Source of the DNA: Bdellovibrionales bacterium
Lineage (GTDB): Bacteria; Bdellovibrionota; Bdellovibrionia; Bdellovibrionales; UBA1609
Direction of reading: 5' to 3'
Assembly: GCA_965261545.1 (NCBI GenBank)
Contig: CBDHDF010000010.1
Span: forward strand, 96,001-160,000
Length of the DNA: 64,000 nt
A model generated the notes under the pieces. The model was not told the DNA's origin and ran no database searches. It saw nothing but the letters and a program-made list of their open reading frames with translations. Below, piece by piece: positions 26,553-60,100 of this stretch; the first letter of the stretch is position 1, and every line of letters starts with the position of its first letter. Made by a program: the position numbers and the translations under genes.

Positions 26553-27757
26553 CTTTGCCCTCCTTGGGTTATCTTATGGTTTACAATTTCTTCCAAGATC
26601 TCCAAATAACTGTGGTCTGGGAATTTCTCTTTAAATTGATGAATGATGGCCTTGTCCTTGGGGTCCGTGGTGCAAATCCAATAGGACAAGGGATCAGGTT
26701 CAATCTTGAGGATGGACTCTTTGTCATCTTGAATATAAAGGCATTCTGAAAAGCCTCCCTTCTGTGAACGCAGAGATTTGACAACCTCAATCTCTGTTTC
26801 ATTGAGTGAGAGAATTTCTTGAAATTCCTTCCAGTCCACTCCACGCTGCTTTAAAATGATTCGACTGGGTGTGTTTTGCATAATGGCGGCGGCCACCTCT
26901 GGGTCGAACATAAAATCTTTAATGGATTGAGTGATTCCCCAAATTCCACCATAGAATTTCCTCATGGTGCGATAGCACTCAATGACAAACTGGGCGGCAC
27001 TCTCGTTTTGTAAGAGCTTCCAAATCTCATCCACAATGAGAAGGTATCTCTGGGAGGGATTTTTAGACGCCTCATTCATAATATACTCAGTTAAAATGAG
27101 TAAAAGGACTCGCTGAAGATCGGGGTAAACATCAAGCCCCTTCACTTCAATGGCCACAAGGGGTTTTGTGAGTTCAATATTGGTGGGACCATCAAGAAGC
27201 TTTCCGTAGGCACTGGCCCCTGTCCAAGAATACAAAATATCAGCGTACCTTCTCATTTCAACAAGGGGGTGGTTCTTCAATATCTTGAGAAGATCGGTCA
27301 TTGTGGGAGACCCACAAGGTGACGCACAAGAAGATCCACGGGAGGGAACGCAGGAGGAAGTACTGAAAAAGGGAATGTTGAAAAATTGAGTGTAGGTTTC
27401 AGAAATGGCTTGTTCCAAAAGAGCTTTTTCTCTTTTGGGTAACCCCTTTGAATCATCTTCTTTGCAGATGGATTCAATAACTCCTAAAAGGAGTTTTTTC
27501 TTAGTGGGGGAAGCTTCCATCTCTCCCCGGCCCAATTGAAAGGCGTTCAGGACAATGCCACTTTCAAGATTCAAGTCAATGAATTGCCCCCCCAGTGAGT
27601 CCACAAGTCCACGGGAAGAAGCCCCATTGTCTATCCAAACCACCTTGGAAAGTCCAAGGTGGTTTTTTGTCTTCGCCTTCTTCATATTCTTCATATTCTT
27701 CATATTTGATTTCCTATTCATGTCTGGTTTCCTGCTTATGTTTGATTCCCTATTCAT
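26549..27757 (-). CDS. VirB4/TraC ATPase, C-terminal part
   Basis: VVWIDNGAS, Walker B LIVDEIW, RKFYGGIWGITQ. Confidence 0.85.
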   Translation of the reverse strand: MNRESNISRKPDMNRKSNMKNMKNMKKAKTKNHLGLSKVVWIDNGASSRGLVDSLGGQFIDLNLESGIVLNAFQLGRGEMEASPTKKKLLLGVIESICKEDDSKGLPKREKALLEQAISETYTQFFNIPFFSTSSCVPSRGSSCASPCGSPTMTDLLKILKNHPLVEMRRYADILYSWTGASAYGKLLDGPTNIELTKPLVAIEVKGLDVYPDLQRVLLLILTEYIMNEASKNPSQRYLLIVDEIWKLLQNESAAQFVIECYRTMRKFYGGIWGITQSIKDFMFDPEVAAAIMQNTPSRIILKQRGVDWKEFQEILSLNETEIEVVKSLRSQKGGFSECLYIQDDKESILKIEPDPLSYWICTTDPKDKAIIHQFKEKFPDHSYLEILEEIVNHKITQGGQS

Positions 27758-29157
27758 GTTTGATCTCCTATAAACATTAAAATAAGTTGGCTTATGGTGA
27801 AGGATTTCCCACTTCCACTGGAACCAATGACAAACCCATTCCAGTTGGGCAGTTCTGGCGCAAAAGGGTCGATGGACACCAAAACATGATCCCGGTTAGT
27901 GACAAGGCATGTGGGCTTGTTGTTTCCCCTCCAGAATGAAAAAACAGGCAGCAAGTGAGAGAGGTTGGAAGATTTCATTTTCTTAGGACGGTTGGTTTGG
28001 CAAAGGCCCGGAGTCGTCTTTAAGAAAGTATCCAGTGTTGCGAAGGTTTCCACCAAACCCTCGGAGTGATTAAGGCTTTTAAAGGTTCTTAAGACTTCAT
28101 CGCATTTCTCATCAAGTTCTCTTGTGGTTTTTCCCCAAATAATGACATTCAGGTCAGCCTCAACCACTTTTTCAGAGCTATCAATAATATCAGACAAAAG
28201 ACCCTCAATTTGGCCAAGCTTTGATTCGCTCTCAAGGTCTTGAACGTGATTGCGCTCACTGCTTGCCATGGAGTGGGCAATTCTCCTTTTAAGTTGAAGG
28301 ACGTTGTACTCCCTCGTCTGGTCACAAACTTTGACCACCTGGCTGATCCAGCAATGAAAGGGTAAGGCCAAGAGTTCACGAATGAGACCCGAATAGGTTT
28401 CATCGGGAAGAGTTCTTAAACTCACGGCTCTAAACTTGTAGCTTCCCACCATCACGTCATGAGAGCTTAGGTGGATATCACTAAGCAAAAACTGTGAGAG
28501 CAGGGAGCTTGGTGAAAAAGCCCTAGGACCTTTGAGTTCTGGAACCCTATGGACTTCGGACCTTGATAGGTTGAAATGTTCATACAGAAGCTCAAACCAT
28601 TCCTTAGATGACAAACGACTCTTGAAGAGTTGCCCATCCTTAAGAGAAGATTCCAAGTGGCTCACCGTTCTTTCAAATCGTTCCACATGGGTTTCAAAGT
28701 CCTTGGCTTGAGCCTTTGTGAAGGGTTTTGTTTTTTGAAAAATCCCCTGCTTCCTAAAGGCAAAGGGAAGACCCTTGAGAAAGCAATAGATTTCAGGTTC
28801 AAAGAAATAACCCATTTCACGATGACTCTTAAGATGAGAAGTTCGCCCCTCCATGATCTTGCGATAGCCCTCAAGAGGACAATTTCTTGATAAAGAAAGA
28901 TGCTCCTCAACAAGGGAGTCCACCTTGGGGGTGAGCTTATAAAGAATCTGCAAAGAGGTTCCCGTTCCAAGACCTGTGATAAGGTTTTCAAGTTTTCTTG
29001 TAAACTGGTTGATCTCATCTGCGGTGGCACAGGAAACATCTTTTCCCTTAATCTTAAAGCCGCAACCCAAGGAACCATCTCCAAAAACCATATAATTTCC
29101 AAAGAAATGCCATAGATTTAAAAAATCACCGATGTTCTGAGGAACTAACAATTTCAT
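27754..29157 (-). CDS. VirB4/TraC ATPase, N-terminal part (ends just after Walker A)
   Basis: ATG at 29157 with GGAGG RBS; Walker A GSSGSGKSF near the end. Confidence 0.85.
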   Translation of the reverse strand: MKLLVPQNIGDFLNLWHFFGNYMVFGDGSLGCGFKIKGKDVSCATADEINQFTRKLENLITGLGTGTSLQILYKLTPKVDSLVEEHLSLSRNCPLEGYRKIMEGRTSHLKSHREMGYFFEPEIYCFLKGLPFAFRKQGIFQKTKPFTKAQAKDFETHVERFERTVSHLESSLKDGQLFKSRLSSKEWFELLYEHFNLSRSEVHRVPELKGPRAFSPSSLLSQFLLSDIHLSSHDVMVGSYKFRAVSLRTLPDETYSGLIRELLALPFHCWISQVVKVCDQTREYNVLQLKRRIAHSMASSERNHVQDLESESKLGQIEGLLSDIIDSSEKVVEADLNVIIWGKTTRELDEKCDEVLRTFKSLNHSEGLVETFATLDTFLKTTPGLCQTNRPKKMKSSNLSHLLPVFSFWRGNNKPTCLVTNRDHVLVSIDPFAPELPNWNGFVIGSSGSGKSFTISQLILMFIGDQT

Positions 29158-29545
29158 GCCTCCTTTCTTCTTCAAAGCTAAGCTCATCTCCCACACAAAA
29201 AATGCCTGGGAGTACGGAGAATTTGATAAAGTCTTGAATATAACGCTCAGGCTTTCCCCTCTTGCCAAAATAAATTCCAAGTGCTAAAAGGGCCGGGAGC
29301 CCAAAAACAAGGGCTCCCGTAAACAGGTTTAAGTTTTGGCTATAAAGGCTTTGACTATAAGCTTGGTCGTAAACATGGCTATATGCCTGACCATAAGTTT
29401 GACCATGAACCTGACCATAAATCTGGCCAAAAATAAGATTCATCACAGATGCAAAAGCTCCCACAGCAATCACATCAAAAAGCTCCATGCCCAAAATCTT
29501 GATCTTTGAGTCAAGGTTTCTATGAACAACAGACCGATCTATCAA
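29126..29545 (-). CDS. VirB3/TraL-like membrane protein
   Basis: Two TMs, KRGKPERY motif; TTG start overlaps the pilin stop. Confidence 0.55.
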   Translation of the reverse strand: MIDRSVVHRNLDSKIKILGMELFDVIAVGAFASVMNLIFGQIYGQVHGQTYGQAYSHVYDQAYSQSLYSQNLNLFTGALVFGLPALLALGIYFGKRGKPERYIQDFIKFSVLPGIFCVGDELSFEEERRHEIVSSSEHR

Positions 29546-32905: not shown

Positions 32906-33809
32906 AGAAGCACCTGAACTCATCACGACCCTTCCATCATTGCCTTTCAATTTATTCAATGCACAAGACGGACCAAATGTTCCAAAGACATAAATGACTG
33001 ATTTTATTGGATATTTAATTTTGAGATATGGACCATAAATAGGTCATGGCCCAAAATATTGAGTTAATTTCATCGAAGCGAAGTAAAAGTAAAGAACAGT
33101 GGACCACTTTCGGTCTATTTAAAATATGTGATGAATGATTTAAGGGATTTAGACAAACCCACAAGTGGGACAGAATAATAAAGTGATGGATTATTTGGGA
33201 CTGTAAAAATAATTGTGTAACTGCAATTTTTTTCTTAAATCTTAAAGCCACTTATGTGGCTCCACTCCTGGTAAAAAGCACAGTCCCATATTATTCGTCA
33301 ATGTATAATTGACATTTTTTCCTTCAAGCGATTTTGTCAGTCACAATGCATTATAAGTTAATGGGGAGGTGGACATCTTCGCTGGTCTATATAATTGGCC
33401 TCTTTAGTTACTCTGGACTTTTGATTGTATTATGGAGCCGTAATGGGATCATATCAGAACTGGAAAGAACTCAAATAAATAATTATCATCTTGGTTGAAA
33501 AAAAATCAGCAATGGCTCTCTCAAAAAAATGGAAATTCCAATCTCATCAAAGGGTTCATGTGTTTAGGTTCCCATACTATATTACCCCCTTTTTTTTATT
33601 TTTTTTAACTTAGGATATTCGAGAAATACCAGAATTGGGATGAAATATGAAAAAAAATGGAAACCCAAATCTGCACCAAGAGGGCATGTATTTAGGTTCC
33701 CATACTATATTACCCTAACCATAGTCTCGGTATTCCAGTACTTCTGTCAACGCCTTAGAGGGGCTTTTAAGCCCCCTTATAAGGCAGGTGGTGGACCTTA
33801 TTAAAAAAC

Positions 33810-35638
33810 TTAGTTGTCAAAACGGTCACCGTATTCAATGGCAAACCTGTTCATGGCTGGCTTCCAGTTGTGTAATGGTCGTGTCCATCGCTTAGAGGCC
33901 ATTTTTATCGCTAAATATACAACTTTTAAAGCCGACCGATCACTGGGAAATATCTTACGATTTCTGATCGCCTTGCGGATCACGCTATTTAACGACTCTA
34001 TGGCGTTTGTGGTATAAAAAATCTTTCTGATTTCATCCGGATAATCGAAAATAGTGATGAGATTGTCCCAATTCCTACGCCAAGACTTTTCAATATTCGG
34101 ATACTTTGAAGACCACTTGGTACAAAATTCCTCAAGGGCCTTTTCAGCTTCTGTCAGAGTCGTAGAGCCATAAATGGACTTGAGGTCTTGGGCGACAGCT
34201 TTCATATCCTTGGAAGGAACATAGCGAAGGGAATTGCGGACCATATGGACAATGCACAGTTGCACTTTAGACTTGGGAAAAGCCGCTGAAATGGCTTGAG
34301 GAAAACCTGTAAGACCATCTACAGAAAATATAAATACATCTTTCAACCCTCGATTTTGCAGCTCAGTCAAAACACTCAACCAAAACTTTGAACCCTCATT
34401 TTCAGAAATCCATAGGCCCAACAAGTCTTTCTGACCCTCCTCTGTAATACCAAGAGCTAGGTAAATCGCCTTATTAATAACTCTCTTGTCTTGATGGACC
34501 TTCACCACGATACAGTCCAAAAATACGATAGGGTAAGTGCTATCCAAGGGGCGGTTCTGCCAAGCCGTAACTTCATCAATAACAGCATCCGTCACGTTGG
34601 CTATCACTGAGTGGGATATCTCTGCACCATGGTAGAGGTCTTTGATAGCTCCTTGAATATCCCTGGTCGTCATTCCCCTCGCATAGAGGGTCAGGATACT
34701 GTCTTCAAAGCCCTCAAGACGAGTCTTACCCTTGGGAATGACTTGAGGTTCAAAGGAGGCACTTCGGTCACGGGGGACCTGAAGCTCCACCTCGCCTTTC
34801 TCTCCCTTTATGGTCTTTCTACTGTAACCATTGCGAGTGTTGGATTTGCGGGTCTCAGACTTCTCATGCCTCTCATAACCTAGGTGATCGTCCATTTCCG
34901 CATTAAGGGCCGTCTCTAAAACAACCTTCATCAGTTGACCCGTTATGTCGGATAAATCCTTTTGGGTCTTGACGTTCTTCGCTAGTTCCTTGCCTATCGA
35001 GTAGGCAGTGGGAACTTCCCCCACTGCCCCTCACAGAACCGTGCTTGAAAGTCTCCCCTCACACGGCTCCTATGATTTTCCGTTTCATTAGGCTCCTCCT
35101 CAGCATAACCAAGTTGGCCTGACTACTTCCATAAATCATGTGACCCCTTCGCTCCATTCTCATTACAAGAACTTCATCACTACTACGAATCACTCTGCCC
35201 CTGGTTGGTGGCATCGGTATTTAGCACTTCGGGGGTCTCCCTTATAGCGTTTCCCTTATCATCCACCAGCAGGTTCCCACGTTCCGATACGAAGCCTGTA
35301 CTAGGTTCATGCCCCCTATACACCGCACGCCGTCTAGATCGGTCATCAGGCTTCCTCTAGACTTATCCCGACGGAGACAACCTTCCTTCGGTTTTGACGC
35401 GACTGTTAATCTTTCGATGCGTCGTCGGTGGGTTTGCTTTCGCTCATCTCCCTAGTACTTACATGACCGTTTACTACGGCCTTTTCCTTGCTCGCTCACT
35501 ACAAGGGCCTTGCCTCCCATGCAGCAGCAAGGTTGTTTGCACTCAAATCCTGAAATCCGAGTGCGGAGGACCTACCTCCATCTTCACATCAGCATGTCAC
35601 CTCCGTGACTTCGTGGCACACATTGTCTTGATATCCAT
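33810..35638 (-). CDS. IS256 transposase, two exons (35638-35622 and 34995-33810)
   Basis: RNGY, VPRDR, YARGMTTRDI, VFLD, DGLTG, QLCIVH, YTTNAIES. The spliced start reads MDIKTIGKELAKN. Confidence 0.9.
34996..35621 (-). ncRNA. ORF-less group II intron (IIB/class D-like), 626 nt
   Basis: 5' GTGTG; domain V GAGCCGTGTGAGGGGAGACTTTCAAGCACGGTTC; domain VI hairpin; 3' end CCTACTCGAT; EBS1-like GTTGTC complementary to the exon end GACAAT. Confidence 0.92.
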
Positions 35639-36108
35639 TCTGCCTTCTCCTTTCAAGATGATAGTTCATCCTAATATGATTCGGCAGTTACACAAAATAG
35701 TTTACAGGCTCGATTATTTTGTCATTTATTACAATAAAATATTAAACGATAACCCAAAATCTAGAAATTTTTCTTATTTTTTTATGATTTTTTATTAATG
35801 AACTCGACGGAAAACCATGAGAGTCGGAAATTCAAAATGAGTTATATTAAAAGTTTAGAAAAATCCTCTCTTGTATCTCACAATCATAATTGCAATAGCA
35901 CCTTGAGTTTGGCTTTCATTGGTAATCATAGCTCTCTGGATTCCTGTTTCAAGGGGTGATCTATTCAGTCGACATAGAGATTGGAGCCCTCATTGCCTAC
36001 TGTTTAAGAAATAGGAAGCCTAGCATCCAAGCTAGTGAGCATGAGGAAGCCTTCTAAAGGCTTTCTAAAAAAAACAAAACTGGGTTTAAGCTATCATCGG
36101 AAAATACT

Positions 36109-38163
36109 TTAACCACCATCATCGAGTCCATCGTCACTAATACTCCAACTACGATCTATGAGGGCGCTCCGTGCATCAATAGCACTATTATTGTATTTTG
36201 AATTTCCACCATGGAATGAGATATTATTCTGTTGTGAGGTGGTGTGGATTTGGTTGAGCAGGCTGCTGTATATTCCCGTGGGAAGGGTGAGTCCTTCAAG
36301 CATGCTACTCATGTCTGTGACACTAAGGAAATTCCATTGAGTCATATCGGGTTGAGCCATTGGGGCTTGCCTAAACATAGAACTCATGTTTGTGACATTG
36401 GAGACATCCCAACCGCTGACGTCGGGATTGGCAACATCTGCCCCATCAAACATATAACTCATGTTTGTGACATTGGAGACATCCCAACCGCTGACATCGG
36501 GATTGACAACATCTGCCTCATCAAACATATGACCCATGTTTGTGACATTGGAGACATCCCAATCGCTGACATCGGGATTGGCAACATCTGCCAAATAAAA
36601 CATATAACTCATATTTGTGACCTTGGATGTATCCCAGCGACTCACATCGAGATCGGCCATATTTGCATCGGAAAACATAAAGTTCATATTTGTGACCTTG
36701 GATGTATCCCAGCGACTCACATCGAGATCGGCCATATTTGCATCGTAAAACATATAACTCATATTTGTGACCTTGGATGTATCCCAACCGCTGACGTCGG
36801 GACTAGCAACATCTGCCCCACCAAACATATAACTCATATTTGTGACCTTGGATGTATCCCAACCGCTGACGTCGGGATTGGCAACATCTGCCTCATAAAA
36901 CATATAACTCATATTTGTGACCTTGGATGTATCCCAACCGCTTACGTCGGGATTGGCAACAGATGCCTCAGAAAACATAGAGTTCATGTTTGTGACATTG
37001 GAGACATCCCAATCGCTGACATCGGGATTGGCAGCTTCTGCATCATAAAACATGCTACTCATATCTGTAACCCCAGAAACATTTCCTCCACTTAGATACT
37101 CAAGGGCTTCGCATTGCCTAAAGGCTCCTTTTAAACTCCGCCACCCCACATCACCAAGATCTTTCACAAAGATGAGTTTTAATCTATGTGCTGTAGCCTC
37201 GCTATCGAAATTCCAAGCCTCAAGGGTCCCCGAAATGGTGACAGTGTAATCTCCAGCTTCGGCGTAAATATGAGTGATATCGCTGTCATCATGGGACGTG
37301 ATCTCACTGGAGGAATCATCCCCCCAATCCACAGTAAAATTAGACTTGTATCCTGAGGGCAAGGGGAGAGCGATGGCTTCACTTGTTTGAGAAGTTCTCC
37401 AAACAGAGACAAAGAAAGAGAACCCTCCATCACTGATACTCCACCCTCGTTCTTTTAAGAGTTGTCGGATATTTTCGGAACGGCTGTCGTACTTAGAGCT
37501 CCCCATATCCAATGTGAAATTTTCCTGGCTGGAGGTTTCATAAAGTCGCTGAAGGAGTGTGTTATAGACCCCTGTGGGAAGGGTGACTTCACTGAAAGTC
37601 TCATCCATCTTTGCCAAAAGAGCAAAATTCCATCCACTGAAGTCTATTTTCTTTATAGAAGTCACTCCTTTAAACATGCGATCCATGTTTGTGACATTGG
37701 AGATGTCTCCTCCTCCTACTTGGCGAAGGTTGCTGCAACCCTCAAAGGCTCCCTCTAAGTTGATCCACCCCATATTCCCTAAGTCGGTCACAGAAATGAG
37801 TTTGTCTTTGCTCCCACTGTTGTTGAAATACCAAGCCTCAAGCTCCCCCGAAATAGTGACGGTGTAGTCTCCAGACTCGGCATAGGTATGAGTGATATCG
37901 CTGTCATCATGGGATGTGATTTCACTAGAGGCACCATCACCCCAGTCCACAGTGAAATTATAATTATACCCTGATCGCAACGGAAGAGTGATGGACTCAT
38001 TTTCACTGGACAAACGCCACACAGAGATAAAGGAAGAAGCTGTCACAGAAGGAGCTTGCTTTGTATCACCACAGCCTAAAAGACTCGCCATGGTCAGGCC
38101 AACAGAGAGACCCATGGTGAGTAAAGGTAGGGTGCATCTTGTAAAAGTTTGTAATGGAGTCAA
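36109..38163 (-). CDS. BspA/DUF285 repeat surface lipoprotein with two PKD-like domains
   Basis: Lipobox LLGC; two TVDWGD...THxYAExGDYTVTISG domains; about ten 25-aa repeats (NPDVSGWDTSKVTNMSYMF). Confidence 0.88.
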   Translation of the reverse strand: MTPLQTFTRCTLPLLTMGLSVGLTMASLLGCGDTKQAPSVTASSFISVWRLSSENESITLPLRSGYNYNFTVDWGDGASSEITSHDDSDITHTYAESGDYTVTISGELEAWYFNNSGSKDKLISVTDLGNMGWINLEGAFEGCSNLRQVGGGDISNVTNMDRMFKGVTSIKKIDFSGWNFALLAKMDETFSEVTLPTGVYNTLLQRLYETSSQENFTLDMGSSKYDSRSENIRQLLKERGWSISDGGFSFFVSVWRTSQTSEAIALPLPSGYKSNFTVDWGDDSSSEITSHDDSDITHIYAEAGDYTVTISGTLEAWNFDSEATAHRLKLIFVKDLGDVGWRSLKGAFRQCEALEYLSGGNVSGVTDMSSMFYDAEAANPDVSDWDVSNVTNMNSMFSEASVANPDVSGWDTSKVTNMSYMFYEADVANPDVSGWDTSKVTNMSYMFGGADVASPDVSGWDTSKVTNMSYMFYDANMADLDVSRWDTSKVTNMNFMFSDANMADLDVSRWDTSKVTNMSYMFYLADVANPDVSDWDVSNVTNMGHMFDEADVVNPDVSGWDVSNVTNMSYMFDGADVANPDVSGWDVSNVTNMSSMFRQAPMAQPDMTQWNFLSVTDMSSMLEGLTLPTGIYSSLLNQIHTTSQQNNISFHGGNSKYNNSAIDARSALIDRSWSISDDGLDDGG
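36330..37085. repeat. 75-bp tandem repeat array within the DUF285 gene
   Basis: Directly visible in-frame repeats. Confidence 0.9.
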
Positions 38164-41127: not shown

Positions 41128-42372
41128 ATGAGCACGGAAGCTCAAACACTTAAAACGATCAAAAAATGTTTCAAGAAAGTTATTCCTGAAAAGGACTCTC
41201 GGGCAACCATTCCACCTCTTGAGTTTATTGTGGCTCTTGTCTTGTCATTCCAGGGAGACTCTAAGACATATTCAATAGAGGGAATTAGGAGGTTTATGAT
41301 AAGTCATTTAGGATTAAGAATTGAAAGACACAGCTTCTGGGAAAGACTCTCTAGAAAAAGATTAAAAGAGCTTCTGAGTAAACTGGTTGAAATGCTCATG
41401 ATAAAGCTATCTCATGGAGCTTTTCATGGGAGCAAAGCCATATTATTACAACTGGGAGTCTCAGACGTTCTTCTTGTTGACTCAAGCACAATAAGCCTTT
41501 GGGATGGAGCATCTGAGAATTTTCCAGGGACAAGAACAAACGCAGGAATTAAATGGCACGCTTGTTTCAGTTTATTCAGTGGTATAATGACTTGGTTCGA
41601 ATTAACTCCGTCTTCCACTAACGATAGGAAGTGCTTTCCTGATATAAAGGAACTCGTTGGAAAATTAGTCATCTTTGATTTGGGATATTGGGACTATGGC
41701 TTATTGTCATCTATTCATGAAGCTAAAGGATTTTTCTTGTCTAGAGTAAAGTCAAATGCCTCTATTCTTATTGATGCTGTTGTTGAAGGTTTGCCAGATT
41801 ACTATGTTGGAAAAGAGTTCTCTGATATTAAACTCAAGAAAAAAAACGATGTTGTTGAATTTATAGGCAGTGTCTTGTCCAATGGTAAATGGGTAAGTTT
41901 GAGAATTGTAGGCTTCTGGAATTCCTCCGAAAAACGCTATCATTGGTATTGCACGAATTTAGATGTGGCAGCGGAGTCCATATATCCAATTTATCGTTTA
42001 CGTTGGCAATGTGAACTTATTTTCAAATCTTGTAAGAATTCTTTGAATGCAAATCAGATCACCTCAAACGATCAAAATATCATAGAGAGTCTTCTTCTTG
42101 CTTCATTAGCGGCTCACCTCACATCAAGTGTTGTTTTGAGGATAGGAAGAACTAAACTCAATAAGGAACAAAATGACTCCACATCGTTTCAAAGAGTTGC
42201 TAAGGTTACCGTCTTATTAGCCTCTGATTTTATCAAATATCTCCTAAGCTCATCTCAAAAGTATTTAAATATTTTGATAGAGAAGATCAAGATATTCTCC
42301 CATGAAATTTATGACACAAACTACCGACGGCGAAAAACATCAATGAATATGGCTAAAAAGGTCTTGCTATGA
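41128..42372 (+). CDS. IS4-family transposase
   Basis: LVDSSTI, IFDLGY, FLSRVK, YRLRWQCELIFK. Confidence 0.92.
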   Translation: MSTEAQTLKTIKKCFKKVIPEKDSRATIPPLEFIVALVLSFQGDSKTYSIEGIRRFMISHLGLRIERHSFWERLSRKRLKELLSKLVEMLMIKLSHGAFHGSKAILLQLGVSDVLLVDSSTISLWDGASENFPGTRTNAGIKWHACFSLFSGIMTWFELTPSSTNDRKCFPDIKELVGKLVIFDLGYWDYGLLSSIHEAKGFFLSRVKSNASILIDAVVEGLPDYYVGKEFSDIKLKKKNDVVEFIGSVLSNGKWVSLRIVGFWNSSEKRYHWYCTNLDVAAESIYPIYRLRWQCELIFKSCKNSLNANQITSNDQNIIESLLLASLAAHLTSSVVLRIGRTKLNKEQNDSTSFQRVAKVTVLLASDFIKYLLSSSQKYLNILIEKIKIFSHEIYDTNYRRRKTSMNMAKKVLL

Positions 42373-59825: not shown

Positions 59826-60100
59826 TATTGTCAGCTAGGCTGTGAAGCGGAAAAGGCTGCTCCCATCAGGCTAGTCGTAAACACCGAGGGGGATTGGATC
59901 ACAGGTGCTACAACAATGGTCAGCCTCACGGAGTAAATTTAGGTTCACTGCCGCACAGACGCAGCTTAGAAATCACAGCACCACCGAATTCCCACAAATG
60001 GCCTGGTTTAACCCGCCCATCGAGGATTATTCGGGTCTTGAGGGTTCATCGCAATACTGTGAAGAAATATCTTCTACACTTTTTTCCAACCAAGCCCGGA
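59826..60100 (+). mobile_element. Degenerate IS21 remnant
   Basis: IS21-end-like cccacaaatggcctggttt and an LRVHRNTVKKYL HTH fragment. Confidence 0.45.

Follow-up and report, generated by a model that had tools for sequence, protein, structure and literature searches.

An ORF-less class D-type group II intron family inserted in IS256-family elements of a Bdellovibrionales bacterium

Related introns and the window locus

Three described systems come closest to the intron reported here. In Thermosynechococcus elongatus, 17 ORF-less TeI3 introns are moved by driver intron-encoded proteins (IEPs), and three of them lie in an IS (PMC2882425). RmInt1, a class D IIB intron that encodes its IEP, interrupts the transposase of ISRm2011-2, an IS630 element (PMC3035460, PMC5894124, PMC4238363). 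Its splicing in vivo amounts to 0.07% and its IS is blocked, and an ORF-deleted form functions with the IEP supplied in trans (PMC3035460); it has been argued to limit its IS (PMC4238363, PMC5894124). RmInt2 moves autonomously and inserts into the inverted repeats of IS elements. Its head-to-tail products have been seen experimentally and are ascribed to the U at EBS3, and among RmInt1 relatives whose IEPs are 72–87% identical, mobility was lost in most heterologous pairs (PMC4615759). ORF-less introns of bacteria are described as uncommon, and almost all of them occur together with related introns that encode an IEP (PMC4424553). In 28 of 447 intron-bearing species only ORF-less introns were recorded (bioRxiv 10.1101/2021.09.28.462093), thus an orphan status is not unique.

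The intron family described here, family A, is represented in the window, i.e. the whole 64,000-nucleotide stretch of contig CBDHDF010000010.1 that was analysed (Table 1). Like TeI3, it is ORF-less and multi-copy, pairs well between EBS and IBS, has EBS-diverged families and is found in part in IS elements, so that a trait of TeI3-type trans-mobilised ORF-less introns is present. By this likeness family A would also be mobilised by an IEP in trans. It differs in being of class D type, in its IS256 target and in that TeI3 is described with closely related intact ORF-bearing introns alongside, whereas the assembly has no close RT intron for family A. As with RmInt1, a transposase is interrupted, but family A lost its ORF naturally and targets IS256. 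With RmInt2 it shares a U at EBS3 together with its context, an EBS2 that pairs imperfectly and head-to-tail copies. A literature search limited largely to open-access papers and their main texts turned up neither a natural class D family devoid of ORFs nor an intron of this sort within IS256. Each element of the account already has a precedent in TeI3, RmInt1 or RmInt2, and the interest lies in the helper, which is missing.

Table 1. Features of the intron and its host element, in window coordinates
Feature	Position	Strand	Remarks
ORF-less group IIB (class D type) intron, family A, 626 nt	34996..35621	(-)	Rfam, fold, comparison
Domain I	35278..35616	(-)	limits approximate, taken from the fold
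EBS2 (GATTA)	35407..35411	(-)	3/5 pairs at the IS256 target and 4/5 at a single further site; co-variation seen in A2
EBS1 (6 nt, probably 7)	35375..35381	(-)	pairs fully with the IS256 target
EBS3 = U	35318	(-)	U-A pair with position +1 of IS256; in tandems, wobble pair with the G that opens the intron itself
Domain IV, 68 nt	35072..35139	(-)	small hairpin, Shine-Dalgarno, ATG at 35088; without RT
Domain V, 34 nt, AGC triad	35036..35069	(-)	Rfam match
Domain VI	34999..35032	(-)	bulged branch A at 35002; in-frame GTG at 35024 within the stem
IS256-family element	33197..35711	(-)	2515 bp with intron (1889 bp empty), imperfect terminal inverted repeats, 8-bp target duplication AAATAATC
Transposase exon 1, 17 nt	35622..35638	(-)	IBS1 35628-35622, IBS2 about 35634-35630
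Transposase exon 2	33810..34995	(-)	open to the stop, 394 codons after the split codon

Structure, class and target recognition

The initial annotation placed a 626-nt intron after nucleotide 17 of the transposase, and both the boundaries and the comparison with empty IS copies bear this out. The intron starts with GTGTG and ends with AT, and the joined junction equals the sequence of 59 empty IS copies with a 400 aa frame, so that the frame is restored exactly, as had been proposed. The Rfam domain I model RF01999 matches positions 35462–35579 (88.5 bits, E-value = 1.5e-16) and the D5-D6 model RF00029 matches positions 34996–35071 (66 bits, E-value = 9.6e-11). The RNA fold gives a six-domain pattern that includes domain I, with −222.8 kcal/mol and z = −4.2 against 20 shuffles. 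Group II intron marks are all found: GUGYG/AY ends, six domains, the D5 catalytic triad and the D6 bulged A. Domains V and VI, which had been called intact, indeed show the RF00029 match, the AGC triad and the branch A, and the reported match of GTTGTC (35381–35376) with GACAAT comes to 6/6 pairs including one G.U, a pairing that would be equalled by chance at about 0.6% of genome positions. The intron has, in sequence and predicted fold, the structure of a complete ribozyme, and splicing itself is predicted.

Domain IV had been said to retain only AGGAGG and a mini-ORF, MKRKIIGAV. Both exist, but the mini-ORF lies partly outside domain IV, as its last codons cross the D4 stem on its 3′ side and then enter D5. 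The Shine-Dalgarno sequence and ATG are positioned as the ORF start of an RT-bearing Azotobacter relative. On this fold, an RT remnant can be limited to the Shine-Dalgarno, the ATG and about three codons at most. The clean internal deletion of the RT gene that had been suggested may have occurred, but to show it would take an RT-coding parent.

Subgroup IIC introns have a short EBS1, lack EBS2 and insert behind hairpins. The present intron shows a co-varying EBS1 of 6–7 bp as well as an EBS2, and its closest RNAs carry class D-type RTs. EBS1 pairs 7/7 with the IS256 exon when 7 nt are counted. Two variants, A2 (C2:291100) and A3 (C2:494623), have an altered EBS1 and each pairs 7/7 with its own exon, and in A2 the EBS2 co-varies with the target as well. 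EBS1 pairing is poor (4/7) at one 5′ fragment (C11:395083), and the family A copy at C2:245651 carries a base change inside EBS1. In a second family, family B, EBS3 is A and a T follows all six B-type 3′ ends. The +1 position is unpaired in a chimera of the two families and at one family A site. Subgroup IIB is marked by pairing of EBS1, EBS2 and EBS3 with the exons, and this is seen here: EBS1 pairs fully, EBS2 at 3–4 of 5 positions and EBS3 as U-A, with co-varying changes in A2, A3 and the B family.

Bacterial class D is defined on the ORF, by an IEP with a C-terminal motif. As there is no ORF to classify, the term class D type is used here on the kinship of the RNA. The intron RNA shows 65–75% local identity to RT-bearing introns, and 67% over 322 nt to an unannotated RmInt2-like locus of S. 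meliloti GR4 (L165). L165 has the RmInt2 EBS2 given in PMC4615759 and an EBS3 context as in family A. The pairing of EBS1, EBS2 and EBS3, together with the kinship to L165, thus points to a IIB intron of class D type rather than to IIC. The lagging-strand bias expected for class D was not seen among the IS copies (5/8 occupied versus 36–37/59 empty, p = 1.0), where the GC skew is patchy and locally unreliable.

Compact class D-type introns occur elsewhere. A scan of genome contigs gave at least 112 5′ ends; 34 have D5-D6 within 2.7 kb, 31 of these with an RT and three without, and the other 78 have no D5-D6 in the stretch examined. A fourth compact intron is in a Methylomonas plasmid (L052, 2942–3600). 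It and the other compact introns (L063, 763–1430; L082; L094) are about 660 nt long with a domain IV stub. Like family A they are compact, but they lie in other branches of the tree and beside RT-bearing kin, which indicates that ORF loss recurs in the group. The L063 intron is situated inside an RT gene, at the YADD motif codons.

Occupied and empty copies of the IS256 element

The host transposase matches NF033543 with 430 bits, and a Mutator-type DDE transposase, terminal inverted repeats and an 8-bp target duplication place the element in the IS256 family. The unspliced transposase frame stops after 13 codons, whereas the empty element encodes 400 aa; translation of the native transposase from the window copy therefore needs splicing, as first proposed. 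A joint that skips the intron, found in all four sequencing runs examined, is accounted for by empty IS copies and gives no indication of splicing. A promoter scan was at chance level (6 versus 5.9). The window IS insertion is polymorphic, since sample S2 has this locus without the IS; the joint there has 70 letters on the short side (X2) or 22 (X4, X5), all in one sample. In X2 the contig across the intron has just 28 and 30 letters of flank, below the threshold of 31, and X1, perhaps the source of the window, does not count as independent.

The non-coding 3′ part of the IS is unusually long, about 610 bp (window 33197–33810), and contains an internal repeat of some 65 bp. Neighbors of the IS in the window are a PKD plus DUF285 repeat protein (36109–38163) and, further left, a weak TraC-like conjugation gene (27754–29280). 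A DDE transposase is found at 41128–42372 and a single CRISPR-DR4 repeat match at 59943–59972.

Family A has 17 5′ ends in the genome: eight behind IS256 exon 1, two in tandem and seven elsewhere (one in a 37-copy repeat, one in a 3-copy repeat and five single). At C4:185506 the 5′ exon is present just once in the genome. Eight copies are identical over 626/626 nt. There are 68 IS left ends and the target is present in 67, eight occupied by family A and 59 empty, in agreement with the initial proposal of a class D-type intron homing into an IS. Both head-to-tail tandems are within IS256 targets; in one the diverged copy is downstream, as would follow from insertion of newer copies at the junction between exon 1 and intron. 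Genome comparison shows many near-identical copies at sites matching the exon-binding sequences, and family A appears to be a real, recently mobile, non-autonomous element of class D type.

Family B is a second ORF-less class D-type family, 647 nt long and 71% identical to A, with seven 5′ ends (e.g. C2:47262–47908). The two are sisters in the tree (support 96/96, IQ-TREE), and by its copies family B also appears to have spread in the genome. One family B target occurs 60 times beside an ORF, which we take to be IstB-like. An intron at C2:463512–464144 has a 5′ half from family B and a 3′ half from family A, which shows that the two ribozymes have recombined. The mobile-element load is extreme, with 45.7% of the assembly in repeated 25-mers.

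The eight occupied and 59 empty copies provide a rare within-genome test of IS disabling. Occupied copies fall into at least four haplotypes, and no private SNP is common to any two of them; the window copy has a private SNP at position 35656. One is identical to an empty copy over 1090 bp and has a different target duplication. Two amplified haplotypes make up 27 of the 43 comparable empty copies and none of the four occupied copies with long continuous sequence; a fifth, interrupted occupied copy fits one of the two. Apart from the intron, 1/8 occupied versus 44/59 empty copies are uninterrupted (Fisher p = 0.0012, post hoc, the occupied copies being larger targets). An intact transposase frame is found in 3/8 versus 43/59, a weak contrast (p = 0.097, also post hoc). 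The different haplotypes, the lack of a common private SNP and the damage in most occupied copies fit separate homing followed by decay, not composite amplification.

We consider it probable that family A is a non-autonomous class D-type IIB intron which retrohomes repeatedly into IS256 with a borrowed RT and leaves dead-end copies. The RT/maturase of another intron would bind family A RNA, which would retrohome separately into pre-existing IS256 copies, insert into its own 5′ junction to give tandem copies and occasionally enter other sites. An invaded IS would make native transposase only after splicing, probably rarely, and the copy would be a dead end that then decays. The intron would act as a local brake and parasite rather than as a switch or passenger. 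This reading has in its favor the co-variation of EBS1 with IBS1 in A2 and A3 and of EBS2 in A2, the distribution and identity of the copies, the contrast in uninterrupted copies across several IS haplotypes, and tandems that are placed in IS256 targets as in the head-to-tail products described for RmInt2 (PMC4615759), where EBS3 U pairs with the first G. Against it, EBS2 forms only 3/5 pairs at IS256, no replication-strand bias is seen where the skew is patchy, and the damage comparison is post hoc, with larger targets among the occupied copies and a weak contrast in intact frames.

The initial annotation had instead seen a gate on the transposase and an intron that may ride the IS, and an intron-bearing IS that moves as a unit, with its transposase dependent on splicing, is improbable here. 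The exact frame on exon joining, three intact exon-2 frames among nine behind an intron and target duplications that differ among occupied copies all agree with such a unit, and the window copy, being absent in sample S2, could have ridden with transposase supplied in trans. The differing duplications, which had been anticipated, are thus present; however, the haplotypes on which they occur point to separate homing, and riding is contradicted by the lack of a private SNP common to two occupied copies, their mostly damaged state and the scarcity of the amplified haplotypes among them. Gating as a function loses its force because 43 intact, intron-free transposases make the gate irrelevant for the cell, and in RmInt1, the class D model, splicing is rare and the IS is blocked (PMC3035460). 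The emphasis shifts from a regulatory gate to what is apparently a non-autonomous retroelement disabling the IS copies it enters. It is doubtful, too, that gene conversion carried dead or orphaned insertions from one IS copy to another, so that an RT was unnecessary after the first events. The IS haplotypes look mosaic, the assembly has no intact class D RT and conversion would keep intron copies identical, but conversion cannot produce seven non-IS256 insertions, EBS1-matched variants or two tandems, and occupied copies differ at two markers close to the site, at distances of 18 and 22 bp (IS positions 72 and 112). Conversion may be the source of some IS copies. A neutral intron, bypassed by a transposase start at the in-frame GTG in domain VI, is very unlikely. 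The resulting 404 aa ORF (33810–35024) is present and is scored as a complete IS256 transposase, but the GTG is paired with a probability near 1 in the D5-D6 fold, while the native start is mostly open.

Search for a helper reverse transcriptase

Homing of family A would require a borrowed RT, which agrees with the maturase in trans proposed at the outset. The RT-encoding parent that had been predicted was not found in the collections searched. In the genome itself (96.8% complete, 11 contigs) blastn and RF01999 gave no RT-coding parent; all 23 RF01999 matches are ORF-less copies of family A or B. The TeI3 type is marked by a close IEP-coding relative within one genome, and no such intron turned up in this assembly. 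Sixty relatives gave one 41-nt D5 match only, and 400 genomes of the phylum gave ten with matches, the long ones at 68–69%. Among the plasmid matches listed the long ones are at 66–71%, a pattern scan of genome contigs gave at least 110 stretches with none close among the matches listed, and a pattern scan of metagenomes gave one match, judged to be chance.

From 30 RT matches in the genome 23 frames were extracted. The only class D-type RT among them, R1, has the class D C-terminal motif, with the first residue relaxed; the motif was taken from PMC4615759. R1 is 50–65% identical to the RmInt2-like IEP, and the intact RTs (463, 435 and 495 aa) are 29–32% identical to it. The N-termini of these intact RTs are presumably class E-like. 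All three R1 copies are broken, being cut by insertion sequences, frameshifted or stop-bearing, and no intact near-identical R1 was found among 8000 candidates scored, the best other protein being 75% identical. Across 335 columns the R1 RNA is 59% identical to A, less than the median of 61% for 46 other introns. A clade of A, B and R1 had a FastTree value of 0.867 but failed in IQ-TREE, where it appeared in only 40% of 200 bootstrap trees.

A class D RT is the likeliest candidate for the helper. That it came from the R1 lineage, now broken in the assembly, has a chance not far from even: R1 is the only frame with the class D motif, but its three copies are defective, its RNA stands no nearer to A than that of other introns, and the loss of mobility in most heterologous pairs of RmInt1 relatives speaks against so distant a partner. 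A closer parent, lost or unassembled, is a tentative but substantial possibility. It is improbable that one of the intact non-class-D RTs serves as helper, and hardly to be expected that no RT acted after the first insertions.

A wider version, in which families A and B are long-lived, SINE-like ORF-less class D ribozymes that borrow distantly related RTs (R1, whose RNA is about 59% identical, or even intact RTs from other classes) and form a genome-wide brake on IS bursts without a cognate parent, is unlikely, though it deserves to be kept in view. If the helper is a distant RT, the known limits of maturase promiscuity would be widened, with a bearing on the origin of common splicing factors, and family A would provide a short targeting RNA of 626 nt for which retargeted variants already occur in nature.

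Other RT sequences in this genome show unusual arrangements. A variant of an intron with a 463 aa RT lacks its 5′ end, and its 3′ end directly abuts IS256 exon 2 at the family A nucleotide (C2:262595–263415); the two may share a target. An intact 2161-nt RT intron is found antisense inside a family B copy, and also directly behind the 3′ end of a broken class D intron (C10:509088–511248; C11:346168–348328). The RT at C4:59374–60432 is unlike intron RTs, with 25% identity to the class D IEP, and from its motif it is presumably the RT of a diversity-generating retroelement.
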